64,000 nucleotides of DNA from Dehalococcoidia bacterium. Lineage in GTDB: Bacteria > Chloroflexota > Dehalococcoidia > DSTF01 > RBG-16-68-14. The stretch is taken from NCBI GenBank assembly GCA_040902195.1, contig JBBDXS010000019.1, positions 213,969 through 277,968 of the forward strand, read 5' to 3'. Under the pieces are notes generated by a model. That model saw only the letters and a list, made by a program, of their open reading frames with translations, was not told where the DNA came from and made no database searches. Of the stretch, positions 46,920 to 64,000 are shown piece after piece (position 1 is the stretch's first letter; each line of letters opens with the position of its first letter). Made by a program: the position numbers and the translations under genes.

Positions 46920-46994
<75 letters not shown>

Positions 46995-47119: not shown

Positions 47120-47149
47120 CATATCGAGGACGTTTGTTGGCGGTCAAAC

Positions 47150-47908: not shown

Positions 47909-48028
47909 CACTGTCTCTCCCTTTTCTGCATCGCTGGCTGCGCGGATATTTCGCGGTTTCTATCTTCTCGTAATGCTCGTCCGTCTGGCACGGCCAAGAG
48001 GCCCCTAGCTGCGAGCCATTCGGCACAT

Positions 48029-49300
48029 ATGCAGCGTCGTCCTTCCGATGTGAACGGCAAAAAGTCCTATACTGCTTTAGTGACTCAGGAAGGGCAGTCG
48101 GAGCATCCGCCAGAAGACGGCAGGCCAGAGCGCAGAGCTCGCGAGCTCTTGAACCTGCGGGCGGAGAACGAACGCCTGCGAACGCGCCTCATTTTGCTGA
48201 GCCGGCTCGGCCAGCAGATCGCCTCGTCACTCGACCTGACAACTGTGTTTCAGCAGGTCGTCGACAGCGCTTGCGAGCTGACGAGTGCTCGCTACGGCGC
48301 GCTTGGCATCTTCGATCGGCACGGACAGATCGAACAGTTCATTACGCATGGCCTGACGGACGAAGAACAGGACCGCATCGGCAGGCTGCCGGAGGGGCTC
48401 GGGGTCCTGGGCTGGCTCCGAGATCTTCAGGAGCCGCTTCGCTTGGGCGACCTGACGAAGCACCCGCGTTCCGCCGGCTTTCCCTCGAACCACCCAGCAA
48501 TGAAGACGTTTCTGGGTGCGCCCATCCGGCATGGCGCAGTGTCTCTCGGCAACCTCTATCTGACCGAGAAGGCTGAAGAACAGGACTTCACGCCGGAAGA
48601 CGAGAACCTGCTCGTCCTGTTTGCGGCGCAGGCGGCAATGGCGATCCGTAACGCGCAACTACACCGCCAAGTGCAGGACCTAGCCATACTGGAGGAGCGC
48701 GACCGGATCGGCATGGACCTACATGACGGCGTGATCCAGTCGCTCTACGCGACAGGGCTGAAGCTCGAAAGCGTATTGGACGACATGGCGAAGAACCCGC
48801 AGGAGGTCGCGTCCGAAGTTGGGCGCGCAATCGATCAGCTCAACCAGGTCATTGGCGACATCAGGAGCTACATCTTTCACCTCCGCCCCACCGCTCTCTC
48901 AGAGACCGACCTTGCCGGGGCGGTGGGTGGGCTGCTGCGTGAGCTCAAGGTCAACACGTTGATAGACGTTGAAATGCTGGAGGCGCCTGGTGCTTGTCGT
49001 GGGCTGGACCAGGAGCTTGCCGGAGGGTTGTTCCTGGTCGCCAAGGAGGCAATCGCGAACGCTCAGAAGCACGCAAAAGCGAAGCGCGTGTCCGCTTCAC
49101 TCGAGCGGTACAACGGCACCCTCAAGATGATCATTGCGGACGACGGCTCAGGATTCGATCCAGCCCTACCGAGCAGCGGCCTAGGCCTGCATAATGTCCG
49201 CGAGCGCATCGAGCGGCTTGGCGGAACGTTGTCGTTGGAGTCCAGTCCCCGGGATGGGACGCGCATCGTCGTAGAGGTCCCAGTCGCGGCTGGAAACTGA
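48029..49300 (+). CDS. GAF-domain sensor histidine kinase (HisKA_3/NarL-partner type, DevS/DosT-like architecture)
   Basis: GAF (TSARYGALGIFDRHGQI...), H-box RDRIGMDLHDGVIQSL, HATPase (ADDGSGFD, GLGLHNVRERI). Confidence 0.85.
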   Translation: MQRRPSDVNGKKSYTALVTQEGQSEHPPEDGRPERRARELLNLRAENERLRTRLILLSRLGQQIASSLDLTTVFQQVVDSACELTSARYGALGIFDRHGQIEQFITHGLTDEEQDRIGRLPEGLGVLGWLRDLQEPLRLGDLTKHPRSAGFPSNHPAMKTFLGAPIRHGAVSLGNLYLTEKAEEQDFTPEDENLLVLFAAQAAMAIRNAQLHRQVQDLAILEERDRIGMDLHDGVIQSLYATGLKLESVLDDMAKNPQEVASEVGRAIDQLNQVIGDIRSYIFHLRPTALSETDLAGAVGGLLRELKVNTLIDVEMLEAPGACRGLDQELAGGLFLVAKEAIANAQKHAKAKRVSASLERYNGTLKMIIADDGSGFDPALPSSGLGLHNVRERIERLGGTLSLESSPRDGTRIVVEVPVAAGN

Positions 49301-49956
49301 TGGTTGAGCAGGCGCGTGTGCTTCTCGTAGACGACCATGACGTCGTTCGCGAAGGCCTGCGCGCGCTGCTGCGTAGGCGCGATGAGTTGGTCGTGGTCGG
49401 CGAGGCGGACTCCGTCGCCTCCGCCATCGAGGCCGCGCGCGCCAGCCAGCCGGACGTCGTCGTTATGGACGTCCGCCTCCCTGATGGTACCGGCGTTCAG
49501 GCGTGCCGGGCGATCAGGGCCGAGCGGCCGGATACGAAGGTCATCATGCTCACGTCATACGCAGACGATGAGGCCGTCTTGGCATCGATCATGGCCGGCG
49601 CGAGCGGCTATCTCCTCAAGCAGACGCGCGGTCAGGACCTGCTCGACGCCATCGGGCGGGTCCTGCGCGGCGAGTCTCTCCTCGACCCCGTCGTGACGAG
49701 CCGGGTGCTCGAACGCGTGCGCAGTGCCGGACAAGGGAAACCTGACGAGCTCTCGCTCCTGTCGGAGCAAGAGCGCAAGATCCTCGACCTGATCGCAGAG
49801 GGCAAGACGAATAAGGAGATAGCGGAAGATGTCTTCCTCAGCGACAAGACGGTCAAGAACTACGTTAGTAGCATCCTGAGCAAGCTCGACCTGCGGCGTC
49901 GCTCCGAAGCCGCCGCGTTCATAGCCCGGCGTCAGACGCCTCCCCCGCAAGACTAG
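49300..49956 (+). CDS. NarL/LuxR-family response regulator (DevR/DosR-like)
   Basis: REC domain (LLVDDHDVVREG, VVMDVRLPDG, KVIMLTSY) plus C-terminal LuxR HTH (LSEQERKILDLIAEGKTNKEIA). TGATG overlap with the kinase gene. Confidence 0.9.
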   Translation: MVEQARVLLVDDHDVVREGLRALLRRRDELVVVGEADSVASAIEAARASQPDVVVMDVRLPDGTGVQACRAIRAERPDTKVIMLTSYADDEAVLASIMAGASGYLLKQTRGQDLLDAIGRVLRGESLLDPVVTSRVLERVRSAGQGKPDELSLLSEQERKILDLIAEGKTNKEIAEDVFLSDKTVKNYVSSILSKLDLRRRSEAAAFIARRQTPPPQD

Positions 49957-49965
49957 ACCTCCTCG

Positions 49966-49999
49966 CAGGGGCCATTCGGCCCCCCGGAAACGGGATTTT
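49966..49999 (+). terminator. GGGGCC-ATTC-GGCCCC hairpin followed by CCGG-AAA-CGGG-ATTTTC immediately after the regulator stop
   Basis: Inverted repeats read directly, 12 nt after the TAG of the regulator and about 35 nt before the orphan receiver gene; short T-run present. Confidence 0.3.
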
Positions 50000-50032
50000 C
50001 GGTTCTGGGGTCGTTGCCTCGGTCGTCGTACC

Positions 50033-50467
50033 TTGGCTACGGAGGGTACGATGTCTGAAACGGTGCCGCTTCCGGCAATCCGGGTCTTGCTCGTCGATGA
50101 AGATAGCAAGACGCGCGCAGCCATCGCAGACCGGATCGGACGAATGGAAGGTATGGAGCTTGCGGGGGCGGCCGGGGACGTGCAAGGCGTACGCGATCTC
50201 CTTCACAGCGCGCAGACGGACGTCATCCTCCTCGACCTACACCAGTACGACGGGCAGGACGGCGGCGTCTGTCGCAGCATCCGGGCGCTGACGGATCTGC
50301 CGGTTATCGTCCTCGCCTCGTTCATGACAGTAGAGCGCTGGCAGGAGGCAAGCGCCGCCGGCGCGACAGCGTATGTCCTCAAGAACATCGATACCGAGCA
50401 GCTTAGCCGCGAGATCAAAGAGCTCACGGCGAAGGCTGGACGCGGCAGCGGAGGAGGAGAAGAATGA
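50033..50467 (+). CDS. single-domain response regulator (CheY-like receiver)
   Basis: IRVLLVDED, DVILLDLHQYDG, VIVLASF, K at position 117. TTG start; ATG at 50051 is an alternative. Gly-rich acidic tail. Confidence 0.7.
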   Translation: MATEGTMSETVPLPAIRVLLVDEDSKTRAAIADRIGRMEGMELAGAAGDVQGVRDLLHSAQTDVILLDLHQYDGQDGGVCRSIRALTDLPVIVLASFMTVERWQEASAAGATAYVLKNIDTEQLSREIKELTAKAGRGSGGGEE

Positions 50468-50985
50468 TCAAGCGAATTCTCGTTCCACTCGATGGGTCAG
50501 CGCTCGCGGAGCGTGTACTGGATGAGGCGAGGCCTCTTGCGCAGAGCCTTGGCAGCACTCTTGTCCTTATCCGCGTCGTGCCGGCGCAGGAGGACGCGGT
50601 ACTGTACGTGCCCCAGCTTGTCGATGAGCTCCGAGAAGCCCACGTTCGAGCAGCGGAGGAGTATCTCACGACGATCGCAGCGCACATCGCCACAGATCAG
50701 CTGCCGACCGAGACGTACGTCTGTGTCGGCGCTGTCGCCCCCACGCTGGCCGACAAGGCAACGGAACTCCATTGCGACCTGATTGCGCTCACCTCACACG
50801 GGATGGGTGGCCTTGGCGCGGCCGTGTTCGGCAGCATTGCGCTGAAGTTGTTGCACAGCGCGCCGTGTCCCGTTCTCGTCATTCGTTCAACGGCGGGACA
50901 GCTCGAGGGCGAAGAGGAAGCGGAAGAGAGTGCGGCCGACCAAGCACTCCTGCGAGAGCTATCGAGTACGCCGGCCGCGCGATAG
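50464..50985 (+). CDS. universal stress protein (UspA family)
   Basis: ILVPLDGS ... LIALTSHGMGG ... GSIALKLLHSAPCPVLVI. ATGA overlap with the receiver gene. Confidence 0.9.
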   Translation: MIKRILVPLDGSALAERVLDEARPLAQSLGSTLVLIRVVPAQEDAVLYVPQLVDELREAHVRAAEEYLTTIAAHIATDQLPTETYVCVGAVAPTLADKATELHCDLIALTSHGMGGLGAAVFGSIALKLLHSAPCPVLVIRSTAGQLEGEEEAEESAADQALLRELSSTPAAR

Positions 50986-50997
50986 GGAGCTTCAACC

Positions 50998-52179
50998 ATG
51001 GATACGCCAACGATTCTCGTACCGCTGGATGGCTCGGAACTGGCCGAGGCAGCCCTTGACGTCGCTGAAGCGTTCGCAAAGGCCATCGGCGCTCGCATAC
51101 TGCTCTTCGCCGCGTTCGAAGACGTGGCCCAGGGGCCGCTCGCGGAGAACTCACGGGCTGCGGAGTACCAACAGCGCGGGATCGACGAGCTCCGTGCTTA
51201 CATTGCGAAGATGGCGAGTGAGCTTGGCCGCGACGGCATCCACGTCGACACAAAGGTTGTCCACGGTGCAGCGTCGGATGAGATTCTCCGCGTCATCGGA
51301 GACGAGGACCCGAGCTTCGTCGTTCTGACGACGCATGGGCGTTCCGGTATCAGTCGTTGGCGCTACGGGAGCGTCGCGTCCAGGCTGGTCCACGAATCGT
51401 CGGCCGCCACCGTCGTCGTCGGGCCTAACGCCCGTCATCCCAGAGGCGCGCACGCAAAACCTGTTCGCCACATCCTCGTCCCGCTCGATGGCTCCGCCCA
51501 GGCCGAGGTCGCGCTGGGGCCGGCAACGGAACTAGCCAAGGCGTTCGGCGCCGAGCTGGTTCTTGCGCAGGTCGTCCAATGGCCCGGAAGCGCGTATATC
51601 GCCGGCGCTCCAGAGCTCGACTTCGCTCAGATAGAGATTGAGCTCACCGAAGCGGCGGCCGAACATCTTCGCATGGTGCGCGACCGCCTCGCCGGCCGTG
51701 TCGCCGGCCGGACCGTTAGAACGTTCGTGCAACGCGGCCCGGCGGTGGACGCGTTGACCTCGCTCGTGGACGGGGAGGGCATCGACCTCGTCGTGATGAC
51801 CTCTCACTGTCGTACCGGTTTCGCTCGCGCCGTCCTCGGTAGCGTCGCCGACCGGATGCTGCAATGCAACGTGCCGGTGGTTCTCATCCGGCCGGAAGGC
51901 GCCGTTCCGACGGTGCACCGGCCTCGTGGGCGCTACTGCCACAACTGCGGCCGCTCGTCACCGTACGCGAACGTGCTGGAAGACGACGTCTGCCTGCGCT
52001 GCGGGCAGCACCTGCACACGTGCGGGAACTGCGCGTACTTTGACGGCGTAGCTTGCATCATGCAGCGTCCGGAAGCTCATAGCCTGCTGCCCGGCAGCGA
52101 CTGCCCGTACTTCCAGTTTCGCGAGAGCGAAGCGCCGCCTGTGCATTCGGCCATCGCTGCTAAACGCGACGACCGCTAG
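50998..52179 (+). CDS. tandem universal stress protein fused to a C-terminal Cys-rich zinc-ribbon region
   Basis: Two USP repeats (ILVPLDGSELAEAAL... and ILVPLDGSAQAEVAL...) followed by CHNCGR...CLRCGQHLHTCGNCAYFDGVACIMQ...CPYF. Confidence 0.85.
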   Translation: MDTPTILVPLDGSELAEAALDVAEAFAKAIGARILLFAAFEDVAQGPLAENSRAAEYQQRGIDELRAYIAKMASELGRDGIHVDTKVVHGAASDEILRVIGDEDPSFVVLTTHGRSGISRWRYGSVASRLVHESSAATVVVGPNARHPRGAHAKPVRHILVPLDGSAQAEVALGPATELAKAFGAELVLAQVVQWPGSAYIAGAPELDFAQIEIELTEAAAEHLRMVRDRLAGRVAGRTVRTFVQRGPAVDALTSLVDGEGIDLVVMTSHCRTGFARAVLGSVADRMLQCNVPVVLIRPEGAVPTVHRPRGRYCHNCGRSSPYANVLEDDVCLRCGQHLHTCGNCAYFDGVACIMQRPEAHSLLPGSDCPYFQFRESEAPPVHSAIAAKRDDR

Positions 52180-53561
52180 TGCGCCCCAGCGATAGCCGTC
52201 TCCTCCAGGTACTTGGTGTACTGGCACATTGCGGCCAAGGCCTGCACCGCTCGCTCCGGGTAAGCGTAGACTGGAACGCGCGCTTCGTCGAGGAGCTTGC
52301 GGCCACGGTCGACCGCTTCGCCGCCCATGAACACGGCGATGAGCGGCTTCGCAAATTCCCGCGCAAGGTATGAGATCACACGCGCGGTGCGTTCCGGCTC
52401 CGTCACTCGTTGCGGGGTAAGGAGCACGAGGAGGGAATCAACCGTGTCGTCCGCGGCGAGCGCCTCCAGGGCCAACTGGTAGCGGTCCGCGCCAGCGTCT
52501 CCAAGCAGATCGACAGGGTTGGTTGTCGCCGCTGCCGCCGGAAGCCGCTCCTTGAGGGCAAGCATCGTATCGCGGGATAGCGGCGCAAGCTTGAGACCAA
52601 CCCGCTCGATGGCATCCGACGCCATGACCGCAGGACCGCCCGCGTTCGTCACGACACCGACCCGCGGTCCTCTCGGCAATGTGGAGAACGAGAAGCAGAG
52701 CGTGTAATCGAACAGCTCCGCCATCGTCGCCGCGCGAACGATCCCGGCCTGCCGGAAGGCCCCGTCGACGATTGCGTCGGAGCTCGCGAGCGCGCCCGTG
52801 TGCGAGCTAGCCGCTCGTGCGCCGCCGCCCGTCGTGCCGACCTTGATCAAGATGACCGGCTTCGATGCGGTCACGCGTCTCGCTACATCCATGAAGCGTC
52901 TGCCGTCCGTTATGCCCTCGAGATAGCCGATGATGATCTTCGTCTGCGGGTCGTCGCCAAGGTAGTCGAGACAGTCGACGTCATTGAGGTCCGCCATGTT
53001 GCCTAGTGAGACGAACTTCGCGAAGCCGAGATCGATCGAGCGCGCCCAGTCAAGGATCGCCGTTGCCACGGCGCCGGACTGCGAGAGCATACTCACATCG
53101 AACTGGAGCGGCGTCGTCTCAGCGAAGGTAGCGTTCATCCCGATCGCCGCATTGATGATCCCGACGGAGTTCGGCCCGATAAGCCGCATGCCGTACCGCC
53201 GCGCGCACTCCACGAGCTCTCGCTCGACAGCAGCCCCCTCCGGTCCGGTTTCGCGGAAGCCTGCCGTTATCACAACCGCAGCGCGGACGCCCTTCCGGCC
53301 GCATTCGTCCAGCGCCGAGAGCACGGCCGCTGCCGGAACGGCAAGAATCGCTAAGTCGGGGACTTCATCGATATCTAGGACGCTGGCGTAGGAGTGCAAG
53401 CCGAGAACTCGCTCAATGTTCGGATTCACGGCGTACAGACAGCCCTGGTAGCGTGCTCGCTGGAGGTTGTCGAGCACCACGTACCCGATCTTTTGCGGGC
53501 TGCGCGATGCGCCGATCACGGCGATGCTTCGCGGATTGAAGAATCGATTGAGATCAATCAC
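52176..53561 (-). CDS. acetyl-CoA synthetase (ADP-forming) alpha-subunit paralog / CoA-binding acyl-CoA synthetase
   Basis: 461 aa; FNPRSIAVIGASRSPQKIG, LIGPNSVGI, SQSGA, HTGALAS. Confidence 0.8.
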   Translation of the reverse strand: MIDLNRFFNPRSIAVIGASRSPQKIGYVVLDNLQRARYQGCLYAVNPNIERVLGLHSYASVLDIDEVPDLAILAVPAAAVLSALDECGRKGVRAAVVITAGFRETGPEGAAVERELVECARRYGMRLIGPNSVGIINAAIGMNATFAETTPLQFDVSMLSQSGAVATAILDWARSIDLGFAKFVSLGNMADLNDVDCLDYLGDDPQTKIIIGYLEGITDGRRFMDVARRVTASKPVILIKVGTTGGGARAASSHTGALASSDAIVDGAFRQAGIVRAATMAELFDYTLCFSFSTLPRGPRVGVVTNAGGPAVMASDAIERVGLKLAPLSRDTMLALKERLPAAAATTNPVDLLGDAGADRYQLALEALAADDTVDSLLVLLTPQRVTEPERTARVISYLAREFAKPLIAVFMGGEAVDRGRKLLDEARVPVYAYPERAVQALAAMCQYTKYLEETAIAGAH

Positions 53562-53632
53562 GACGTACGGCCACGGTTGTCAGCGGCAGTGGTGGCCATG
53601 TGGAGCGTAGCACACGAGCCGTCGGCTGGCTG

Positions 53633-54790
53633 TCAGTAGCGAAGCACGGCGGCGATGCAGGCCTCTTCGAGGAGCGCGGCCTCGGCGTCTTGGTGGACGG
53701 TCTCGATGAGCGCGCCGGTTTGCAGCGCTCGTTCGATGGCCCATTCAGCGAGATCGGCCACCGGCTCAAGCGTCTGGCCACACACAGGGCACTCGCCCAG
53801 GGTTTCGATAGCGGCAAAGTCGCCGGCGGGGCATGCGCTGCCCTTGATGTTGCGCTGTGTCGCTACAACCAGTTTATGGACCCGCCCCTCACCCAGCGCC
53901 TGCAGCGTGTCGTCCCAGCCGACAGTCCCCAGCGCTCCGGAACGAGCCGCGTCAAGAACGTCGGAAACGATCTGGCGCTCGGCTTCGCTTTCGGCGGCGG
54001 CTTCGACCTCTTCGACGCGCTCGACAATCTGCTCGTCGGAGAGGAACTCTTCTGCCGCGAACGTACCGGCCACGCGCGTCCGCAGACCCCGAGGTAGCAC
54101 GGAGAGGAAGGCTGCGCGCGCCTCGTCCGGGCCCCCGACAATCAACCGATCGAATGAACGACGCTTAGCCTCAACCTGCAACTGCTTGGCGGCGCGCACG
54201 AGGTGACTGTGGAGGTGGGCATCGCGGTGCCGCGAGTAGCCGGGCTGGGCCCACCCGCCCCTCTTGCTGCGGCCAGGGTACTTGTCAACGACGTCTACCG
54301 CGTGCTCGACTCGCCCCAGGTACACGTGCAGCAGACGGGCGTGGTCTTTATCGACAAGAGCGACGGCGTACCGCTCGTAGTCGTCTAGAATGGCTGCGAG
54401 CGGCGCAAGGACCGGCCGCTCGGCAAAACGGGCGAGCGGCTGGACCGGTACCTGCAACTGAAACAGGTCCCACAACCCGCGCGGCTGGCAAGAAAAGAGC
54501 GCAACACCGCGGCCGGCCAGCTCGAAGTCATCGCGGAGGAATTCGATCACGCGGCGTCGCTCGTCGTCCACGCGGCCCTGGAGAAGGCCGCGCGCAGTGC
54601 CGCCGAGCGTATGGAGGACGTTCGTGGCTACACCGTGAATATCGCGCCGCTCGCCTCCCGACGTCTCGAAGGAAAGGTACACAGAGAGCACCCCGTGCGG
54701 ACTGCGAAAGCGCCCCAACCGGCGCAGGTCCCCTTCGGTTGGCGCTCGGAGCTGGTTGATTGTTGCCCGGTTTCGTGTTGGCATAGTCAT
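53633..54790 (-). CDS. eRF1/Pelota-like (bacterial baeRF family) protein with C-terminal zinc ribbon
   Basis: Central PGRSKRGGWAQPGYSRHRDAH parallels eRF1 domain-2 HGRGGQSALRFARLR (GGQ replaced by GGW-AQ). C-terminal CPAGD...CPVCGQ zinc ribbon. From memory it resembles M. tuberculosis Rv2629 (recalled as eRF1-like). Confidence 0.65.
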   Translation of the reverse strand: MTMPTRNRATINQLRAPTEGDLRRLGRFRSPHGVLSVYLSFETSGGERRDIHGVATNVLHTLGGTARGLLQGRVDDERRRVIEFLRDDFELAGRGVALFSCQPRGLWDLFQLQVPVQPLARFAERPVLAPLAAILDDYERYAVALVDKDHARLLHVYLGRVEHAVDVVDKYPGRSKRGGWAQPGYSRHRDAHLHSHLVRAAKQLQVEAKRRSFDRLIVGGPDEARAAFLSVLPRGLRTRVAGTFAAEEFLSDEQIVERVEEVEAAAESEAERQIVSDVLDAARSGALGTVGWDDTLQALGEGRVHKLVVATQRNIKGSACPAGDFAAIETLGECPVCGQTLEPVADLAEWAIERALQTGALIETVHQDAEAALLEEACIAAVLRY

Positions 54791-55215
54791 GGGCCCTTCT
54801 GTGAATGATGGCCGGCGACGGCGAGGAACGCATCGAGGTACTGCTTGACGTCATGCGCGACGTCGTCCAACGACAGCACGCCGATGACTCGGCCGCCGCT
54901 GATCGTGACCGGCATACGCCGCGCGCCGGCATTCCTCATCATCTCCACAGCCTTCTCCAGATCGACACCGCCATACACCGTCGTCGGGTGGAGCTCCATG
55001 CATGCACCGACGGGGCGCTTGGCGGGATCGCCACCGAGCGCCATACAGCGCACGACGAGATCGCGATCCGTGATCACCCCCTCAATGATGCGGCCCTCTT
55101 TCGTCGCGACAAGCATCCCAACGTGGTGGTCGCGCATGAGCTGGGCCGCGCGTTGGCAACTATCGACGGCTGACACTTCGACAAGGGCGAAGTTCATCAC
55201 GTCGTTGACCTTCAT
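54787..55215 (-). CDS. CBS-domain pair protein (Hrp1/Rv2626c-like)
   Basis: 142 aa, two CBS repeats (VGMLVATKEGRIIEGVITDRDLV; RRMPVTISGGRVIGVLSLDDV). ATGA overlap with the eRF1-like gene. Confidence 0.85.
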   Translation of the reverse strand: MKVNDVMNFALVEVSAVDSCQRAAQLMRDHHVGMLVATKEGRIIEGVITDRDLVVRCMALGGDPAKRPVGACMELHPTTVYGGVDLEKAVEMMRNAGARRMPVTISGGRVIGVLSLDDVAHDVKQYLDAFLAVAGHHSQKGP

Positions 55216-55233
55216 GCCGGTCCCTCCATTCGT

Positions 55234-55855: not shown

Positions 55856-56794
55856 CTACTTGTAGTCGATCAGTCCTACCAACGAGCGGGACGCGTGCAG
55901 TCGTTGAATCGCCTCAGACAGGAGCTGTCGCAGACTGATCACCTGGACTGGTAGGCCGGTCTCTGCAGGCGATTTGACGCTGTCGGTAACGATGACGTGC
56001 TTCACAGGCAACGAGCGCAGTCGCTCAACAGCCTGGCCGGCAAACAGCCCGTGTGTGGCTGCGACGATCAACTCTGTGCTTGAACCAGCGTCCAGAACGG
56101 CCCGGTATGCCGCCTCAATGGTCCCGCCGGTGCTAATCATGTCATCCACGATGACCGGAGAGCGCCCGCGTACTTCCCCGCTGACGCGGGAGACCCGGAC
56201 TTCCGCGCCGGAAATACGGGTCTTGTGCACAACAGCCATCGGAACGCCCAAGGCGTCCGCAAATCGTTCGGCAAGGTGGGCTGCACCGAGGTCCGGTGCG
56301 ACGATGACGCTTGTCTCACCGCACAGAGGGCGGGCACTCTCGATCAGCGACTGGACAGCACTGAGGTGGGCGACGGGGATGCTGGTGAGAGCCTCGATGG
56401 CCGGCGTGTGAACGTCGACAGCGACTATCTGCTCGATGCCGCTTGCCTGGATGAGATCGGCTGCAAGCCGGGCGGCGATCGCCTCCCGTCCGCGCGCGCG
56501 TCGATCCTGTCGCGCATAGCCGAAATACGGGATGACCGCGGTGGTGCGCCCCGCCCCGGCGCGGCGGCAGGCATCGGCAAGCAAGAGCAGTTCCACTAGA
56601 TGCTGATCCGGCGGCGGGCTTGTCGCCTGAATGATGAAGACGTCGCGGCCGCGAACGGAGTCAACGAGTTCGACCTGAAGCTCTCCGTCAGGGAATCGCT
56701 CCACTCGGCGATTCGTCAGATCAATCGCAATGTCCGTCGCGACATGTTGGGCGAGCTCCAGGCTCGCCGTGCCAGCTATCAGCGAGAGTTCCAC
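55856..56794 (-). CDS. prs: ribose-phosphate pyrophosphokinase (PRPP synthetase)
   Basis: 312 aa; DGELQVELVDSVRGRDVFIIQ, PYFGYARQDRR, VIVDDMISTGGT PRPP-binding loop. Confidence 0.9.
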   Translation of the reverse strand: MELSLIAGTASLELAQHVATDIAIDLTNRRVERFPDGELQVELVDSVRGRDVFIIQATSPPPDQHLVELLLLADACRRAGAGRTTAVIPYFGYARQDRRARGREAIAARLAADLIQASGIEQIVAVDVHTPAIEALTSIPVAHLSAVQSLIESARPLCGETSVIVAPDLGAAHLAERFADALGVPMAVVHKTRISGAEVRVSRVSGEVRGRSPVIVDDMISTGGTIEAAYRAVLDAGSSTELIVAATHGLFAGQAVERLRSLPVKHVIVTDSVKSPAETGLPVQVISLRQLLSEAIQRLHASRSLVGLIDYK

Positions 56795-56865
56795 CGGCTA
56801 GCGCCTTCCGAGCCCTGCATTCCAATCCCCGATGGCGAACGGGCCGCGACCGTGCGCTCCCTGTG

Positions 56866-58239
56866 TCAATGGCTAGCCCGCGCTCGAACGGGCCGCCGCA
56901 TGTGCGCGTCCGTCAAGATCTGCTGTACTTCTGCGTCCTCGGTCTGTCCGAATTGCTCGTAATAGTAGCCAACGGCCAAGAACGGCTCGGGTTGGTATAG
57001 GCACACAACATCGTCGACCTCGTCGCCAAGAGCTGAGCAGGCCTCTGTGGATCCGACTGGTACAGCAACCACGATCTTCAAGGGACCTCCGGCCCGAACC
57101 GAGCGCACTGACGCTCGCATCGTCGCGCCGGTCGCAAGTCCATCGTCTGCGATAATCACAACGCGTCCGGAGAACACTCCCGCCGGCCGGCCCTTGCGGA
57201 ACTGTGTCTCGCGACGACGGGCCTCTTCTCGTTGCTCCGCGGTCTCCTCCTCCAGATATCTTTTGCTCACCGCGAGCTCGCGGATGACGTTCTCGTTGAG
57301 GAACCGTCCGCCGTTCGCGGTCACGGCCCCGATCGCCAGCTCCGGGTAGCCTGGAGCGCCAAGCTTGCGGGCGACGACGACATCGAGGTCAGCGTCCAGC
57401 CGCTTGGCGATCTCGTCCGCGACTGGTACGCCTCCTCGCGGAATACCCAGCACAATAACGTCCTGACCGCCGTACGCCTCAACGAGGCGCTCACCCAACT
57501 GCCGGCCGGCGTCGCGCCGGTCGCGAAAGTGCGGGCCATAGTCCGGCGCCCGCCGCGCGACCGGTGCCACCGGCTCCCCCCAAGGCGGATCTTCCTTCAG
57601 CCCAAGCTTCACGAGGAACCATTCGACCGTCCGATCGAGGGCTTGCTCCAGCGTCCCCGGCTCTTCGAAGAGGTGCCCGGCTCCCTCGACGATCGAAGTC
57701 GTCGCGAAGGAACATTGAGCGGCTCCATCGCGGATCTCGGAGAGCAGCGGGTCGGCGGAGCCAACGAGGACGAGCGACGGGACATCGAGCGCCTTCCAGC
57801 TGTCGGAGCTGAGCGGAGGCGCTCGCAACACCATCGTGGCCGGGCGAACGCGCCCGCGCCGAACAGCCTCGGTGGCCACGACGGCGCCGAAGCTCGAGCC
57901 GGCGATGGCGAGCCGCGCGGGGTCGAGCTGCGGATGCGCCAGGGCCCACTGGAAAACGGCCACAAGATCGTCGAGGAACGCCTCCTGGCCGCGCGGATCG
58001 TCAGAGGACTCGCCGTGGCCGCTGAGATCGAAGAGAATCGCCGCGATACCGGCGTCGAGCAGGTGCGCTGCAATTACGCTGTTGCGTGGCGACGCCTTAC
58101 TGCTTCCTAGCCCGTGGACAAAGATTACGCCCGGCACGCGGCCTGCAGTGGCCGGGGCCAGTAGACGTGCCGAGAGACGGGCGCCGTTTCGCGTGATAGT
58201 AACGTCCTTACATGTACCAACCATTTGCTTCCTCCACAT
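56866..58239 (-). CDS. alpha/beta-hydrolase (dienelactone-hydrolase-like) - phosphoribosyltransferase fusion protein (M. tuberculosis Rv0571c-like architecture)
   Basis: N-terminal GVIFVHGLGSSKAS ... AGSSFGA hydrolase motifs; C-terminal type I PRTase (VVIIADDGLATGATM). Confidence 0.8.
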   Translation of the reverse strand: MWRKQMVGTCKDVTITRNGARLSARLLAPATAGRVPGVIFVHGLGSSKASPRNSVIAAHLLDAGIAAILFDLSGHGESSDDPRGQEAFLDDLVAVFQWALAHPQLDPARLAIAGSSFGAVVATEAVRRGRVRPATMVLRAPPLSSDSWKALDVPSLVLVGSADPLLSEIRDGAAQCSFATTSIVEGAGHLFEEPGTLEQALDRTVEWFLVKLGLKEDPPWGEPVAPVARRAPDYGPHFRDRRDAGRQLGERLVEAYGGQDVIVLGIPRGGVPVADEIAKRLDADLDVVVARKLGAPGYPELAIGAVTANGGRFLNENVIRELAVSKRYLEEETAEQREEARRRETQFRKGRPAGVFSGRVVIIADDGLATGATMRASVRSVRAGGPLKIVVAVPVGSTEACSALGDEVDDVVCLYQPEPFLAVGYYYEQFGQTEDAEVQQILTDAHMRRPVRARASH

Positions 58240-58255
58240 GCTGCTTCACCTCGCG

Positions 58256-58558
58256 TCACTTCCGAAGGCTGGTGGCCTGTCCGAGGAAACGCTCCCAAGA
58301 AGTGGCGAGCCAGGTTTCGGTGGTAGCATGCCCAAGCGATCGCACGAGTAAGGCCACCTTGTTCGCGGAATCGCTATCGGGCGCCTCGTAGATATCGAGG
58401 TAGTCATAGGGACCAAGCAGGGCGTAGTTCGCTAGCCACTTGACGTTCGGGCATTGTTCCTTGATGCGGCTTTCCACCTCACGGTTCAGCGTTTCAACAG
58501 CGTCAGGACGGTTCAGCGCTTCAGGCGACAGGCGTGTGAGAAGGACATACGTTGGCAT
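58256..58558 (-). CDS. GYD domain protein
   Basis: 100 aa; LLGPYDYLDIYEAPD matches the GYD-family core. Confidence 0.8.
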   Translation of the reverse strand: MPTYVLLTRLSPEALNRPDAVETLNREVESRIKEQCPNVKWLANYALLGPYDYLDIYEAPDSDSANKVALLVRSLGHATTETWLATSWERFLGQATSLRK

Positions 58559-58866
58559 TGGTAGACTCCTTCATTACGCAGCGCGCGTTCGTTTGGTAGC
58601 GCTGCCTCTCCGTGTCGTCGTTAGCCGTCTCGGTAAGCTGATGGCCGCACTGGATACGATCCACGGCCCGTAGGAACGAGGGCTCGCGGTACAAGAGTGG
58701 GCCACGGCGCGACCGCCGGGGAGGGCGGACTTCCGACCGCTCTGGTGACTCCGCCTGGTGGGCTTTCGCCGTCCTTAGGCTCTGCCTCCGGGGAGGTCTT
58801 CCGTCCGTCCTCCACATACAACCCTACGACGAATGCCAGCTCGTGCTGAGTGCCGTATAGCCCTTC

Positions 58867-61812
58867 TTGGTCGAGCCGATCGTCCTAACCATCCGCGATG
58901 TTGGATGCGATATACGACTCGTATGCGGCGCGTTGCAGGAAGGGCCTGTTGACCTGCGAAACGGGGGCCGGATGCGGGTATGCTTCCGCGTCTCCGATCG
59001 CCTTTACTTACGTCGCGAGGTACCTGCGATTGTAAGGGACGTTCCGACCACAGCAGCGCCGAGCGTACAGAACACCAACGACCTCGTCGGCGCGGCGGCG
59101 GACGGCGTGTATGGCGTCCTCGGTACCTCTCCTGCGGGTCTGAGCAGCGAGGAGGCGCGGAACCGGCTGCTCCAGCATGGGCCGAACGAGTTGCCGCGCC
59201 CGCGACCCGCAAATCCAGCACGGCTGCTCTTTGAGCAGGTCAGCCACACGCTCGCGCTGCTGCTCTGGGCCGGGGCTGGACTTGCTTTCCTTGCGGGCCT
59301 GCCGCAGTTGGGTTGGGCGATCCTTGCCATCGTGGTCATCAACGCCGCATTTAGCTTCTGGCAGGAATACAGGGCAAGCCGGCTCATCGAGACATTGAAC
59401 CGGCGCCTGCCCGCGGTCGTTCGCGTTCGACGTGACGGCGTGGAGCATCGCGTACACACAGACGACCTGGTGCCGGGCGACTTGCTCATCGTCCGCCGAG
59501 GAGATCGCGTTCCAGCGGATGCCCGGCTCGTCCGCGCCGTAGACCTTCGCCTCGACTACAGCAGCCTCACGGGAGAATCGGAGCCGGTCGAGCGTGAAGC
59601 GCCGTCCGCGCCGCCCGCGCCCCTTGCCGATGCGCCCAATTGCGTTCTTGCCGGAACGACGGTCGTCGATGGAAGCGGCGAGGCCGTGGTGTTTGCGACG
59701 GGTAAGAGCACCGCTTTCGGCCAGGTGGCCGGGCTGACTGAGCGCGTCTACCTGGAGCCGAGCCCGCTCCAGCGCGAGCTCGCGCGCACTGCCCGCGCGA
59801 TCGCCGCGGTTGCGGTGATCACCGGGCTCTTTTTCTTTCTGGCGGGAGATGCGACCGGCCGTCTCACTGCCAGAGAAAGCTTCATCTTTGGCGTAGGCAT
59901 CCTCGTCGCGATCGTTCCCGAAGGGCTTCTTCCAACCGTGACGCTTGCGCTCGCGCTGACGGTGCAACGGATGGGACACCACAACGCGATCGTGAAGCGG
60001 CTTTCTTCGGCGGAGGCTTTGGGTTGCACGACGGTCATCTGCACCGACAAGACGGGCACGATCACAATGAACGAGATGACAGCCCGCCAGGTCTGGGCCG
60101 GCGAAGCCCACTATGGTATCAGCGGACAAGGATATGGATTGGGTGGCAAGCTGCGAGAGGCGGACGACAGCGGCAGGGACGAGGTCGCGTCGCTAGAACT
60201 ACTGCTGCGCTGCGCCGTCCTCTGCAACAACGGCATTCCTCCGCGCTCGGACACTCGCGTCGCTGAGCTGGGCGACCCGCTGGATGAAGCGCTGCTCGTT
60301 CTGGCGATCAAGGGAGGTCTGGATCCGGACGCGATTCGCCGCCAGTGGCGTCGACTTCGGGAGTACCCTTTTCACGCCGAGCGTCGCAGTATGGCCACGC
60401 TGCATGAGCGTGACGGCGAGTTGAAGGTCTTTGCCAAAGGCGGGCCGCTGGAGATACTCGAGCGGTGTACGGGCGAACTGCGAGCCGGCACTCCGCGCGT
60501 CCTCGACGACGCGAGACGGATAGAACTGCAACGGCGCGTCGAAGACATGTCGGATCGCGGACTGCGCGTCCTCGGCTTCGCCTATCGCGACGCACGGGAC
60601 GAGAACGATGTGAAGGACATCGATCGAGTAGAGAGGGACCTGGTCTTCCTGGGACTGGTCGGTCTCGATAATCCGCTCCGGTCCGAAGTCCCGGAGGCTG
60701 TCGAGCGCTGCCACAGCGCGGGCATCCAGGTCGTGATGCTCACAGGTGACTACGCGCACACGGCGCTCGCGGTGGCGCGCGAAGCTCGCATTGCGTCTAG
60801 CGCCGATGACGCGGTAACGGGAGCAGAACTCGATGCACTAAGCGACGATGCGCTCGGGAAACTGCTGGCGGACCGGCAACCCACCGTCTTCGCTCGCGTC
60901 ACACCGGAACACAAGCTCCGGCTGGTCGAAGCGTATCAGCGTCTGGGGCACATCGTGGCGGTCACGGGAGATGGCGTGAACGACGCGCCCGCGCTCAAGG
61001 CAGCCGAAGTGGGCATCGCGATGGGGCGTACCGGAACGGACGTCGCGCGCGAAGCGGCAGACATGGTGCTCATGGACGACAACTTTGCCACGATCGTCCG
61101 CGCCGTCGAAGAAGGACGAACGGTGTTCGCCAACATCAAGAAGTTTCTGACCTATGTCTTAACCAGCAACGTCGCGGAGGCCGCCCCCTTTGTTCTCTTT
61201 GTACTTGTCGGCGTGCCGTTGCCGCTGACGATCTTGCAAGTGCTGCTTGTCGACGTGGGAACGGACATGTTCCCGGCGATCGCGCTGGGGATCGATCCGC
61301 CCGATCCCGGCGTGATGCAGCGACCACCCCGCGCTAGGAACGAGCGCATCGTTTCGGCCGGCTTGCTGCTGAGGGCGCTGGGCTTCCTCGGGATGCTAGC
61401 CGCAGCGCTTAGCCTGGCCGCCTATTTCTACGTCCAGTGGGACATGACGGGACACGTTTTCCACGGCCTCGCCGATGAGGGCGCGCAGTACCGCGCAGCA
61501 ACGACCGTCACGATGGCGGCTATCGTCGCTTGCCAGGTAGCCAATGCGTTCGCGTGCCGGAGCGAACACGGTTCGGCGCTGGGCCGCGAGATGCTGGCGA
61601 ATCGCGCCCTCCTAATCGGTATCGCGGCGGAGATCTTACTGCTGACTGCGCTGATCGGCCTGCCGCCTCTGCGTCACATCTTCGATCTGGAGCCAATCGA
61701 CCGCACGTACTGGCCGGTGCTGGCCTCGTTTCCGATCGTCTTTCTGGCGGTGGAGGAGGTCCGGAAATCCATTGTGCGAGCGATGTCGCGAAGTGCTGGG
61801 GCGAAAGCGTGA
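58867..61812 (+). CDS. P-type cation-transporting ATPase (P2-type, Ca2+/CtpF-like)
   Basis: N-terminal cation-ATPase domain (LGTSPAGLSSEEARNRLLQHGPNEL), TGES, DKTGTITMN phosphorylation motif, TGD, GDGVNDAPAL. True start is probably downstream of 58867 (first ATG 58972; GTG 59107) because the first ~35 codons have atypical low GC3. Confidence 0.82.
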   Translation: MVEPIVLTIRDVGCDIRLVCGALQEGPVDLRNGGRMRVCFRVSDRLYLRREVPAIVRDVPTTAAPSVQNTNDLVGAAADGVYGVLGTSPAGLSSEEARNRLLQHGPNELPRPRPANPARLLFEQVSHTLALLLWAGAGLAFLAGLPQLGWAILAIVVINAAFSFWQEYRASRLIETLNRRLPAVVRVRRDGVEHRVHTDDLVPGDLLIVRRGDRVPADARLVRAVDLRLDYSSLTGESEPVEREAPSAPPAPLADAPNCVLAGTTVVDGSGEAVVFATGKSTAFGQVAGLTERVYLEPSPLQRELARTARAIAAVAVITGLFFFLAGDATGRLTARESFIFGVGILVAIVPEGLLPTVTLALALTVQRMGHHNAIVKRLSSAEALGCTTVICTDKTGTITMNEMTARQVWAGEAHYGISGQGYGLGGKLREADDSGRDEVASLELLLRCAVLCNNGIPPRSDTRVAELGDPLDEALLVLAIKGGLDPDAIRRQWRRLREYPFHAERRSMATLHERDGELKVFAKGGPLEILERCTGELRAGTPRVLDDARRIELQRRVEDMSDRGLRVLGFAYRDARDENDVKDIDRVERDLVFLGLVGLDNPLRSEVPEAVERCHSAGIQVVMLTGDYAHTALAVAREARIASSADDAVTGAELDALSDDALGKLLADRQPTVFARVTPEHKLRLVEAYQRLGHIVAVTGDGVNDAPALKAAEVGIAMGRTGTDVAREAADMVLMDDNFATIVRAVEEGRTVFANIKKFLTYVLTSNVAEAAPFVLFVLVGVPLPLTILQVLLVDVGTDMFPAIALGIDPPDPGVMQRPPRARNERIVSAGLLLRALGFLGMLAAALSLAAYFYVQWDMTGHVFHGLADEGAQYRAATTVTMAAIVACQVANAFACRSEHGSALGREMLANRALLIGIAAEILLLTALIGLPPLRHIFDLEPIDRTYWPVLASFPIVFLAVEEVRKSIVRAMSRSAGAKA

Positions 61813-64000
61813 GGGTTCCCGCACACCAATCTTCGGAGGACAAGCGGCCCGCTGGCCCGCGCCGCTCGCGCTCAGACGCATCGCTTCGTGACAGGGCAAA
61901 CCCCGCCTGGCACGCCGGACCGTCCTCGGTTGTCTGCGAAAAGCTGGGGGTAGACCCCGGCGAAGGTTTGTCTGAACACGAGGCGCAGCGCCGGCTTCAG
62001 CAATGGGGTCCCAACCGGCTGCCGGAAGAGCGGGGTCCCGGCTGGCTGGATTTGCTGCGGCGGCAGTTCGCACAGTTCCTCATCGCCGTCTTGGTCGTCG
62101 CTGCGGCCCTCGCCCTCGCGCTCGGGGAACGGCTTGACGCCGCAGCTATTCTCGGCATCATCGTCATCAACGCGGCGCTCGGCTTTGCTCAGGAGTACCG
62201 GGCCGAGCGAGCGCTGGCGTCGCTCCGCTCGCTGTCGGCGCCGACGGCTACCGTGCTGCGTAGCGGCGCCTTCGCCGTCTCGCCGGCGGCACAGGTGGCG
62301 CCGGGGGACATCCTCCGCTTGGAGGCTGGCGACATCGTTCCTGCGGATGCGCGGCTTCTTGAGGTCGCGGCGCTTCGGCTGAACGAGGCGCTCCTGACGG
62401 GCGAGTCCATCCCCGTCGACAAGAGCGTTTCGCCGGTTCCTGCCGAGGCGGACCTGGCCGAACGAACCTCCATGGTCTACCAGGGTGGTCTCGTCGTCAA
62501 CGGTCGCGCGCTGGCCGTCGTCGTTGCAACCGGCGAACGGACGGAGATGGGCGGCATCGCTGCCTCACTGCAAGGCCAGGCGCCGCGCAGCACTCCGCTC
62601 CAGCGGCGCTTGGCGGAGATGGGCCGCTGGCTGGTGTACGGTGCGGGCGGTCTTTGTGCCCTTGTCTTCATCGTCGGACTCTTGCGCGGCATTGACGTCA
62701 GCGAGATGGTCCTCACGTCAGCGAGCCTCGCCGTGGCGGCCATTCCAGAGGGCCTCCCCGCGGCCACGACGATCGTGCTCGCGCTGGCCGTCCAGCGCAT
62801 GGTGCGCCGGAATGCGATTGTTCGGCGGCTCGCCGCGGTGGAAGCGCTCGGCTCGGTCACAGTGATCTGCGTCGACAAGACCGGGACGCTCACCGAGAAC
62901 CGGATGAATGCTCAGGAGCTCTGGATCGAGGGCCATCCCGTGGTATTGGTCGAAGGCGGAAGCAGCTTAAGTGGCCGGAGCGACACGCTCACCCGCCTGC
63001 TGATCGCCGGCGTGCTGTGCAACGACGCGAGCCCGCAGGATGGCGCGGGCCTTGTCCGGGCGGTCGGCGATCCCACCGAGGGCGCTCTGCTCGATCTCGC
63101 CAGGCGGTTTGGCATGGACGCGAAGGAGGTGCGCGCAAAGGCCCCCCGGCTGCATGAGCTGCCGTTTGACGCCGAGCGCAGCCGCATGGCGGTAGTCTCC
63201 CAGACGACGAGCGGCGTCATGGCGTTTACGAAGGGAGCTCCGGAGGTTATCCTTCCGCTGGCGGCGGCCGTGCTGTTGGACGGCCGAGAGCGCGAGATCG
63301 ACGACCCTGCTCGCGAAGACCTCCTGCAGGCAGCCAGGAGTATGGCCGGCAGGGGCATGCGCGTCCTCGCGTTTGCCCAGCGCCTCCTGCGGTCTGGGAA
63401 CGATGAAGCGATCGAGGAGCAGCTCGTCCTGCTCGGGCTCGTGGGCCTCGCCGATCCTCTGCGCCCCGACGCCAAGGCTTCGATCGCGCGCGCGCGCGCC
63501 GCTGGCATCCGGACCGTCATGCTGACGGGCGACCATCCCAGCACGGCCCGCGCTGTGGCGAGACAGCTCGACTTGCCTGCCGGCGAGGTCGTCCTCGGGC
63601 GGCAAGTCGAGGAGCTCACGGACACCGAGCTCGACAGAGCGGTCGCACAGGCGAACGTCTTCGCCCGGGTCTCGAGCAGACACAAGCTTAGGCTGATCGA
63701 GTCGCTCCGTCGGCTCGGCCACATCATCGCCATGACCGGCGACGGCGTGAACGATGCTCCCGCGCTGCGCGCCGCGGACGTCGGCGTCGCCATGGGGCAG
63801 GGCGGGACGGACATCGCCCGCGACGCCTCGGATATCGTCCTCGTCGACAACAGCCTTCACTCCATCGTGGCCGCGATCGAGGACGGACGGACCATCTACG
63901 ACAACATCCGGAAGTTCGTCCACTATCTCGTCACCTGCAACCTGGCGGAGCTGGCGGTCGTCTTCTTAGTCCTGACCGTCGACGGAACGACTCCGCTCTT
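61809..64000 (+). CDS. second P-type cation-transporting ATPase, 5' portion (continues beyond window end)
   Basis: Not in the ORF track (no in-window stop). From the GTG at 61809 (GTGA overlap with the first ATPase stop) the frame reads ...VCEKLGVDPGEGLSEHEAQRRLQQWGPNRL ... TGESIPVDKS ... CVDKTGTLTENRM ... MLTGDHPSTA ... GDGVNDAPAL to the window end. Confidence 0.8.
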   Translation, partial: MRVPAHQSSEDKRPAGPRRSRSDASLRDRANPAWHAGPSSVVCEKLGVDPGEGLSEHEAQRRLQQWGPNRLPEERGPGWLDLLRRQFAQFLIAVLVVAAALALALGERLDAAAILGIIVINAALGFAQEYRAERALASLRSLSAPTATVLRSGAFAVSPAAQVAPGDILRLEAGDIVPADARLLEVAALRLNEALLTGESIPVDKSVSPVPAEADLAERTSMVYQGGLVVNGRALAVVVATGERTEMGGIAASLQGQAPRSTPLQRRLAEMGRWLVYGAGGLCALVFIVGLLRGIDVSEMVLTSASLAVAAIPEGLPAATTIVLALAVQRMVRRNAIVRRLAAVEALGSVTVICVDKTGTLTENRMNAQELWIEGHPVVLVEGGSSLSGRSDTLTRLLIAGVLCNDASPQDGAGLVRAVGDPTEGALLDLARRFGMDAKEVRAKAPRLHELPFDAERSRMAVVSQTTSGVMAFTKGAPEVILPLAAAVLLDGREREIDDPAREDLLQAARSMAGRGMRVLAFAQRLLRSGNDEAIEEQLVLLGLVGLADPLRPDAKASIARARAAGIRTVMLTGDHPSTARAVARQLDLPAGEVVLGRQVEELTDTELDRAVAQANVFARVSSRHKLRLIESLRRLGHIIAMTGDGVNDAPALRAADVGVAMGQGGTDIARDASDIVLVDNSLHSIVAAIEDGRTIYDNIRKFVHYLVTCNLAELAVVFLVLTVDGTTPL

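Follow-up and report, generated by a model that had tools for sequence, protein, structure and literature searches.

A 64-kb stretch of DNA from a Dehalococcoidia-class bacterium of the phylum Chloroflexota (contig JBBDXS010000019.1), analysed here over its whole length and referred to as the window (G+C content roughly 65%), ends in a contiguous block of genes that runs from 47.9 kb to the end of the window. This block, which we denote the island, encodes a GAF-domain sensor kinase, a NarL-family response regulator, a stand-alone receiver, universal stress proteins (USPs), an eRF1-like protein of the Balon family of ribosome hibernation factors, a protein with paired CBS domains, enzymes of nucleotide, acyl-CoA and tRNA metabolism and two P-type ATPases (Table 1). 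The original prediction, made from the sequence, had compared these genes to the DosR (DevR) dormancy regulon of Mycobacterium tuberculosis, and Pfam recovers every gene that it listed, in one uninterrupted block. We find that the island likely represents a two-component hypoxia/redox-stress regulon of the DevS/DevR (OsdK/OsdR) type. Near-identical DNA is also present on a Logan contig (L001).

Gene spacing and overlaps define the operon layout. A short-chain dehydrogenase/reductase (SDR) gene (47150–47911, minus strand) diverges from the kinase–regulator pair (48029/48080–49956, plus strand), which is followed by an operon of the receiver (REC), a single-domain USP and a tandem USP (50051–52179, plus strand). 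Convergent with this operon is a minus-strand run of two operons split by a hairpin: the first comprises the genes for a GYD-domain protein, a hydrolase/phosphoribosyltransferase (PRTase) fusion and ribose-phosphate diphosphokinase (prs) (58558 down to 55856), and the second the genes for a YbaK-type deacylase, the CBS protein, the Balon-family factor and the alpha subunit of an ADP-forming acetyl-CoA synthetase (ACS) (55707 down to 52176). The ATPase pair (58972 to beyond 64000, plus strand) diverges from the GYD gene across a 413-bp gap.

Table 1. Coordinates of the island genes, operator-like sites and bordering tRNA gene in the window.
Feature	Position	Strand	Evidence and remarks
tRNA-Gly(GCC)	46920–46994	+	ARAGORN and Rfam; left edge of the block of lower GC3 (G+C at third codon positions); context, not a functional part
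Island gene block	47.9–64 kb		Pfam; contiguous
SDR-family oxidoreductase	47150–47911	−	Pfam adh_short_C2, E 6e-70; divergent from kinase
Operator-like palindrome TGCGAGCCATTCGGCACATA	48010–48029	.	Between SDR and kinase genes; 13.8 bits, moderate
DevS/DosT-like sensor kinase	48029–49300	+	Pfam single GAF, HisKA_3 and HATPase_c; soluble
DevR/OsdR-like NarL-family response regulator (REC and GerE)	49300–49956	+	Pfam, PDB
Strong operator CAGGGGCCATTCGGCCCCCC	49966–49985	.	21.4 bits; centre about 75 bp upstream of the REC-USP-USP operon
Stand-alone receiver (Response_reg)	50033–50467	+	Pfam; likely start ATG 50051
Universal stress protein, single domain	50464–50985	+	Pfam Usp, E 4e-28
Tandem USP	50998–52179	+	Pfam Usp, two domains; Cys-rich C-terminal extension of about 85 aa
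ADP-forming ACS, alpha subunit	52176–53561	−	Pfam; last gene of the YbaK-CBS-Balon operon
Balon-family ribosome hibernation factor (eRF1-like)	53633–54790	−	Pfam baeRF_family10, 110 bits
Hrp1-like CBS-pair protein	54787–55215	−	Pfam CBS, two domains
YbaK/ProX-type aminoacyl-tRNA deacylase	55234–55707	−	Pfam tRNA_edit, E 3e-25; TIGR00011 weak match
Weak operator-like site GGCGGGCTGTTTGGCCTGTA	55771–55790	.	Upstream of YbaK; 11.0–12.9 bits; overlaps a hairpin with a 10-bp stem, hence uncertain
Ribose-phosphate diphosphokinase (prs; phosphoribosyl pyrophosphate (PRPP) synthetase)	55856–56794	−	Pfam; TIGR01251, 309 bits (cut-off 113)
Alpha/beta-hydrolase and PRTase fusion	56866–58239	−	Hydrolase_4/Abhydrolase residues 38–149, Pribosyltran residues 246–398; likely start ATG 58224
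GYD-domain protein	58256–58558	−	Pfam GYD, E 5e-23; heads the minus-strand operon
Operator-like site TGAGTGCCGTATAGCCCTTC	58847–58866	.	In the 413-bp GYD/ATPase divergent region; 14.9 bits
Type II P-type cation ATPase 1	58972–61812	+	Pfam Cation_ATPase_N, E1-E2 and Cation_ATPase_C; start codon as called in L001
Type II P-type cation ATPase 2	61809–64000 (runs past window end)	+	Pfam

A DevS/DevR-type two-component system and its predicted operator

For comparison with the proteins of M. tuberculosis H37Rv, we used the PDB entries for DevS, DosT, DevR, Rv2626c and MSMEG_1130 as proxies. The five best solved-structure matches to the GAF domain of the kinase are all GAF-A domains of M. tuberculosis DevS or DosT (E values of 7e-38 to 2e-36, about 50% identity). 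The proximal haem ligand of DevS, His149, and the distal Tyr171 align to identical residues of the kinase (2w3d and 2vzw), which lie in the motifs NHPAM and LYLTEK, and these two residues (H155 and Y177 in the kinase) are invariant in 12 of 12 homologues at 37–74% identity. From these alignments, the kinase is predicted to bind haem through a proximal histidine, with a distal tyrosine. Among solved structures, the regulator matches full-length DevR best (3c3w, E 8e-58); VraR and NarL score lower. The equivalents of DevR D54 and T82 are kept, and the segments MDVRLPDG, LTSY and KTVKNYVS all match DevR. The last of these is the recognition helix, identical in the two proteins and unchanged in the regulators of five related Dehalococcoidia loci; it contains K179, K182 and N183, the residues with which DevR contacts DNA. 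By sequence, the two-component system is DevRS-like, as the original prediction had proposed.

Alignment to a 75%-identical homologue (P0068) indicates that the kinase probably starts at GTG 48080 rather than at ATG 48029. The latter codon directly abuts an operator-like site, and the NCBI annotation begins the kinase at residue 56. A TATACT hexamer lies 8 nt upstream of GTG 48080, which hints at a leaderless or short-leader kinase transcript. More than 100 closer homologues of the kinase were found (53–93% identity), and those with a taxon name are almost all labelled as metagenome-assembled genomes (MAGs) of Dehalococcoidia or Chloroflexi. The automatic annotation of JGI already names one homologue ‘DevS’, and a kinase scan of JGI metagenome contigs returned distant kinases only. 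Among Chloroflexota and other MAGs, kinases with a DevS-type GAF domain vary in architecture (P0126, P0144, P0173, P0132 and P0185): some are soluble with one GAF domain, others have around 448 aa and a hydrophobic N-terminal extension resembling a membrane anchor, and two distant homologues (P0132 and P0185) contain two to three GAF domains, the extra one also bearing the His/Tyr haem motif.

The stand-alone receiver retains the acid pocket and the phospho-acceptor aspartate, and it is kept inside the USP operon in six related loci (L095–L099 and L101).

The search for a shared palindrome in the intergenic regions of the island, suggested alongside the original prediction, yielded an OsdR/DevR-type box. 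Its consensus, (A/G)GGGCC(A/G)WT(C/T)GGCCC(C/T), describes a palindrome of 16–20 bp and in essence reproduces the 16-nt box that OsdR recognises in Streptomyces, AGGGCCGATCGGCCCT. Binding of OsdR to AGGGCCGATCGGCCCT was verified by electrophoretic mobility shift assay and mutagenesis, and OsdR also binds the M. tuberculosis devR, hspX and Rv3134c promoters (PMC5069765). We scored the DNA with a symmetrised position weight matrix (PWM) trained on 16 sites that lie outside both the window and L001 and L098, its near-identical relatives. The 64-kb window contains five matches of at least 10 bits, four of which (at 48010, 49966, 55771 and 58847) fall within the roughly 1.1 kb of intergenic DNA in the island; first-order Markov simulations expect 0.026 matches there, and none of 2,000 simulations attained the observed count. 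The intergenic set of this test included 61813–61950, which is probably coding, and the site at 49966 is orthologous to some of the training sites, so it counts as a phylogenetic footprint and not as an independent occurrence. Operator sites exist in the island and are non-random.

The strongest site, whose core palindrome GGGGCCATTCGGCCCC (49968–49983) sits between the regulator gene and the REC-USP operon, has near-identical orthologous boxes downstream of the regulator gene in L096, L097, L099, L102 and L103. The L098 orthologue of the site at 48010, GGGCCATTCGGCAC, scores 20.6 bits, and the site at 55771 is also kept in L098. Across 1.37 Mb of fetched loci, 27 matches reach at least 14 bits, nearly all in two-component-system loci or in closely related Balon loci. 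The box stands directly upstream of the genes for Balon (L002 and L003), the small heat-shock protein HSP20 (L100 and L002), the CBS protein (L102) and the kinase (L103), and it also precedes a USP gene, between the divergent HSP20 and USP genes of L002. Because the recognition helix is identical to that of DevR and the palindrome coincides with the validated OsdR box, we predict that the regulator binds these palindromes.

Balon, CBS and other genes of the island

The eRF1-like protein is most similar, among solved structures, to the mycobacterial Balon MSMEG_1130 (8v9j, E 2e-10, residues 76–385), and the catalytic GGQ motif is changed to GGW, the KGGQSAQ segment of aRF1 (4af1) aligning with RGGWAQP. 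The protein belongs to Pfam baeRF_family10, a clade found mostly in Chloroflexota, and contains a C-terminal CxxC...CxxC insertion that is kept in relatives. Its scores lie far below the cut-offs of the curated NCBIfam equivalog families for MSMEG_1130 and Rv2629 (95 bits vs 480 for NF052288; 44.5 bits vs 320 for NF052289). Helena-Bueno et al. identified Rv2629 and MSMEG_1130 as Balon homologues that occupy the ribosomal A site, and noted that hrp1 is close to one of the mycobacterial Balon copies and that RtcB is often found next to Balon (PMC10901736). The earlier likening of this protein to Rv2629 is thus borne out at the level of the Balon superfamily. The CBS-pair protein, described as Hrp1/Rv2626c-like, has Rv2626c as its best PDB match (E 5e-12).

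The CBS and Balon genes overlap by 4 bp (54787–54790), and their pairing is conserved in L098, L100 and the contig of P0004. Several PDB matches of the CBS protein bear ribosome-style chain names (9znf_4, 9zni_6 and 9l96_a), and archaeal ribosome hibernation factors that contain CBS domains (Hib/AHA/Sri) were recently described. Given the conserved pairing, the ribosome-style chains and these archaeal factors, a functional CBS–Balon partnership is worth testing.

The other genes fit the original prediction to varying degrees. The tandem USP had been described as Rv2623-like; a PDB search at E ≤ 1 lists 15 USP structures, and Rv2623 is not among them, which leaves a likeness to Rv2623 unsupported beyond the tandem Usp architecture. 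Its C-terminal tail (about 51925–52179) has a zinc-ribbon-looking pattern, CHNCG...CLRCG...CGNC, that is also present in the orthologues of 393 and 384 aa (L098 and L099) and absent from those of 286–311 aa (L095–L097). The predicted ADP-forming ACS is present, as a gene for the alpha subunit only (TIGR02717, 560 bits vs a cut-off of 567). A second alpha gene and the only ATP-grasp beta gene lie just outside the island (44590–46867, minus strand), leaving the island copy without a beta gene of its own.

Two type II P-type ATPases are encoded where duplicated CtpF-like ATPases had been proposed. They are 43% identical and are old paralogues, not a recent duplication. ATPase 1 matches the NCBIfam PMR1, SERCA and IIC models below their cut-offs, and the best matches of the ATPases are split between Na/K- and Ca-ATPases, which supports an assignment at the class II level only. 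The only plausible start of ATPase 2 is GTG 61809, which shares bases with the ATPase 1 stop codon (GTGA), so the two are probably translationally coupled.

The sequence around these genes offers some clues to the history of the block. GC3 is 0.70–0.78 in island genes and 0.80–0.88 upstream. The tRNA-Gly(GCC) gene that borders the lower-GC3 block (47000–64000) could be a signature of an integrated island, the right end of which lies beyond the window. No integrase and no flanking direct repeat were seen in a generic repeat search of the island, which returned paralogue-derived and chance repeats only. An Rfam scan of 46–64 kb found only the tRNA, with no riboswitch or small RNA in the 413-bp gap (58559–58971), where there is also no convincing open reading frame. 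Scans for sigma-70 promoters and for terminators were uninformative. The alignment to L098 ends at 58625, where L098 has an HSP20 gene; neither HSP20 nor TreT, nor remnants of them, are found in the window, and the window lineage appears to have lost or replaced the HSP20 gene. A search with the GYD protein for sequence beyond the window end recovered a short Logan contig only.

Farther upstream, the region 19238–32809 encodes many O2-dependent enzymes (P450, a Rieske/KshA-like oxygenase, a luciferase-like monooxygenase and nitronate monooxygenase), together with beta-oxidation genes and an MMPL transporter, which suggests an aerobic life degrading lipids or steroids. At the other end of the window, adjacent genes for Ku and an ATP-dependent (LigD-type) DNA ligase (378–1259 and 1383–2516, both minus strand) form a bacterial non-homologous end-joining (NHEJ) pair, about 1.4 kb from a GT20/OtsA trehalose-6-phosphate synthase gene (3925–5478, plus strand). 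Such functions are typical of stationary phase and desiccation. The genes are 42 kb away from the island and are not accompanied by a DevR-type box. The trehalose gene, said in the original prediction to fit the module, is not part of the island.

Recurrence in related genomes and comparison with known systems

The core of the SDR gene, the kinase–regulator pair and the USP/REC/USP genes is kept in L095, L096, L097, L098, L099 and L101. The SDR is the most constant neighbour of the two-component system (L007, L095, L096, L098, L099, L100 and L101). Around the system, the genes for the SDR, the ACS alpha subunit (L007, L100 and L101), P-type ATPases, HSP20 and TreT recur in shuffled order, and the gene set as a whole recurs, shuffled, in L098, L099, L100, L101, L102 and L007. 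L098, with a 93% identical kinase, carries the entire island and an HSP20 gene beyond GYD, and L099 adds an ABC exporter and TreT. In L100 the order is CBS-Balon-P-ATPase-HSP20-ABC-SDR-TreT-ACS-USP, and in L101 genes for a multicopper oxidase, ClpB, SDR, TreT and ACS precede kinase-regulator-USP-REC. L102 combines a tandem USP, PFOR-like genes and another USP with a CBS gene that has a strong box, and L103 adjoins a cytochrome c oxidase operon. The grouping is not fortuitous: related genomes contain this gene set again, and one operator is common to the island promoters. That the genes recur in changed orders speaks for selection for co-regulation or co-function and not for inherited synteny.

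In two loci from other Dehalococcoidia MAGs, archease and RtcB genes, identified by sequence motifs only, precede an operator and Balon (L002, 7938–11155; L003, 62–2290), an arrangement that echoes Rv2629–Rv2631. L002, from the same MAG as L095, has a second operator between its divergent HSP20 and USP genes (17655–18988).

Among the closest known counterparts of the system is OsdK/OsdR (SCO0203/SCO0204) of Streptomyces coelicolor, which likewise pairs a NarL-type regulator with a DevS/DosT-like kinase and has an essentially identical box, with copies that cluster around the locus of the regulator itself and before USP genes. The OsdK/OsdR system is autoregulated (PMC5069765). The system described here differs in belonging to Chloroflexota and not Actinomycetota, in its one-GAF kinase and in its cargo: Balon, CBS, YbaK, prs, the PRTase fusion, the ACS alpha subunit and P-type ATPases, as against developmental and nitrate-reductase genes in Streptomyces.

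With the DosR system of M. tuberculosis the island shares the haem-type GAF-A domain (H149 and Y171), the regulator's equivalents of D54, T82 and the K179/K182/N183 helix, and a 20-bp palindromic operator built as GGG-N-C-N4-G-N-CCC. The classes of cargo in common are USPs, an Hrp1-type CBS protein, a Balon/Rv2629-type factor (at the superfamily level only), a type II P-type ATPase of the ctpF class (at the class II level only) and a PRTase-domain protein, to which related loci add HSP20 (the hspX class), archease-RtcB-Balon and a trehalose gene. Rv0571c is annotated as a phosphoribosyltransferase and a member of the DosR regulon; the fusion protein resembles it at the level of the PRTase domain only. 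With a hydrolase half in Rv0571c, the fusion as a whole would be a putative counterpart. In contrast to M. tuberculosis, the half-site is GGGCC and not GGGAC, Balon is nearer to MSMEG_1130 than to the Rv2629 subfamily, and the stand-alone receiver, SDR, ACS alpha subunit, YbaK, prs and GYD protein are extra members. As for the Balon factors themselves (Psychrobacter Balon, MSMEG_1130 and Rv2629), the island protein has the aeRF1-like architecture, aligns to MSMEG_1130 along its full length and has lost GGQ, and its gene lies in a stress operon beside an Hrp1-type CBS gene, as does one mycobacterial copy. It differs in its assignment to baeRF_family10, in the CxxC...CxxC insertion and in the translational coupling of its gene to the CBS gene.

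Regulatory model, alternatives and significance

In the model that we propose, the soluble single-GAF kinase would bind haem through its proximal histidine, with a distal tyrosine, and, by analogy to DevS and DosT, would autophosphorylate upon loss of O2 or binding of NO or CO. It would then phosphorylate the NarL-type regulator, which in turn would bind the 16–20 bp palindromes and induce its targets. The best-supported candidates for direct targets are the REC-USP-tandemUSP operon and the divergent promoter between the SDR gene and the kinase–regulator pair, the latter implying autoregulation. Probable further targets are the GYD-hydrolase/PRTase-prs operon and the ATPase pair, which share one medium-scoring box, and the YbaK-CBS-Balon-ACS operon, which has one weak box. 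Co-regulation of the whole island is a prediction of the model.

The outcome would be a quiescence programme. In it, Balon with its Hrp1-like CBS partner would park ribosomes in hibernation, the USPs would bind nucleotides and YbaK may clear mis-acylated tRNA. The prs product could supply PRPP to the PRTase fusion for salvage and ACS could make ATP from acetyl-CoA by substrate-level phosphorylation, while the SDR may re-oxidise NAD(P)H for redox balance and the P-type ATPases may hold the cation balance. More speculatively, the co-induced stand-alone receiver might act as a second phospho-acceptor, serving as a sink or a branch.

Several observations weigh against this model. Hallmark genes of the DosR regulon (nitroreductases, narK2X, tgs1, fdxA and nrdZ) were not seen in the island, where a Pfam scan of the proteins gave no match to the nitroreductase, NarK/NarX and Tgs families, and hspX is absent from the window. 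The kinase has one GAF domain (residues 68–206), followed by HisKA_3 and HATPase_c, in place of the tandem GAF-A and GAF-B of DevS. The canonical M. tuberculosis core GGGACNNNNGTCCC, allowing up to two mismatches, is not enriched (25 matches vs 48.7 expected), and the canonical DosR box TTSGGGACTWWAGTCCCSAA did not hold up as the box of this locus, the M. tuberculosis consensus scoring only 0.6–2.6 bits on the local PWM. The training sites of this PWM were hand-picked by eye from orthologous regions, making the enrichment in those loci partly circular. Of the four boxes in the window, no more than two are strong, and the one before the Balon operon is weak (11–13 bits) and overlaps a hairpin. 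Finally, across 80 Balon loci from many lineages and several phyla, the neighbours of Balon are rarely island genes and are mostly unrelated; the linkage is therefore lineage-specific, and island-wide synteny is limited to close relatives.

The last points would favour a smaller regulon, in which the system controls only itself, the SDR and the REC-USP-USP genes, and Balon, CBS, YbaK, prs, the PRTase fusion, GYD, ACS and the ATPases are bystander stress genes under other control. Indeed, strength and conserved position coincide only at 49966 and 48010 and in the orthologues of these two boxes, and in L095–L097 the conserved core consists of just the SDR, the kinase–regulator pair and USP/REC/USP. 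We nevertheless consider this explanation unlikely, as strong boxes stand right before Balon, HSP20 and CBS genes in the related loci named above, the accessory genes recur beside the system in different orders in several genomes, and the window has two further sites at non-orthologous island promoters. That the palindromes are not operators at all, but transcription terminators or generic repeated extragenic (REP-like) hairpins, seems extremely improbable. GGGGCC-N4-GGCCCC could form a 6-bp hairpin, and several copies directly follow the stop codon of the regulator or TreT gene (49966 in the window; 5735 and 9304 in L099). However, the palindromes lack a downstream T-tract and were not among the calls of the terminator scan; copies also lie between divergently transcribed genes (L095, 8211; L102, 17659; L002, 18244), where they cannot be terminators. 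Moreover, the other 47 kb of the window and about 1.1 Mb of unrelated loci contain hardly any of them, and their sequence is that of the validated OsdR operator.

Two further alternatives concern the signal and the origin of the system. The GAF domain might bind another ligand or none, with the kinase responding to, for example, nutrient or envelope stress. Besides the single GAF domain, this idea draws on the residues E87 and H89 of the DevS hydrogen-bond network, which are G and F in the kinase; yet DosT also has a glycine at the E87 position. Together with the invariance of the proximal histidine and distal tyrosine, the cytochrome c oxidase operon beside one homologue (L103) and the many O2-dependent enzymes of the host, this makes a sensor without haem very doubtful. 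As to origin, the likeness to DosR might reflect horizontal transfer, ultimately from Actinobacteria, with a recent acquisition beside tRNA-Gly, rather than a native Chloroflexota programme. The tRNA gene at the left edge, the fall in GC3 inside the block and the identity of about 50% to both the mycobacterial DevS GAF domain and DevR, which is high between phyla, are in keeping with such a history. The more than 100 closer kinase homologues, with the named ones almost all from Dehalococcoidia or Chloroflexi, argue against it, as do the presence of the core module in differing chromosomal contexts across many such MAGs and the lack of a visible integrase or direct repeat in a block whose right end lies beyond the window. 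We regard recent acquisition as rather unlikely; it concerns origin and would not conflict with the function proposed here.

Actinomycetota other than mycobacteria are already known to have DevR-type regulons, such as OsdKR in Streptomyces, DosR having also been mentioned for Rhodococcus; the system described here extends them to a new phylum and has a simplified sensor. Within the paper library covered, a literature search gave no relevant report that links DosR or DevS to Chloroflexi. Because a Chloroflexota genome carries a close DevS/DevR relative and its recognisable operator beside stress and hibernation genes, a dormancy programme of this kind would extend beyond mycobacteria and even beyond Actinobacteria.

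It is tempting to go further and to regard the DevR/OsdR hypoxia–dormancy programme as an ancient module of the Terrabacteria as a whole and not as an invention of Actinobacteria, although we lean against this wider reading for now. Such a module might combine a haem-GAF kinase and a regulator whose recognition helix is fixed with the GGGCC-N4-GGCCC operator and a core that recurs, made up of USPs, HSP20, Balon (with archease and RtcB), an Hrp1-type CBS protein, a type II P-ATPase and trehalose synthesis. Its coupled CBS–Balon unit might sense adenylate or energy status in hibernation and be a bacterial counterpart of archaeal Hib/AHA/Sri. If this were true, M. tuberculosis Hrp1 would thereby gain a function.

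Models of tuberculosis latency centre on the DosR regulon, many members of which (the USPs, Hrp1, Rv0571c and CtpF) are still without known function. The island, found in free-living Chloroflexota, would provide an independent lineage in which to study such proteins through guilt by association, with Hrp1 tied to Balon and PRPP synthetase feeding the PRTase, and its single-GAF sensor would offer a simple version for biochemistry. The core of the programme would then be a response of bacteria in general to oxygen limitation and quiescence, not an adaptation of pathogens, and the regulon predicts how the abundant uncultured Dehalococcoidia-class bacteria of the subsurface and soil may survive fluctuations in oxygen.

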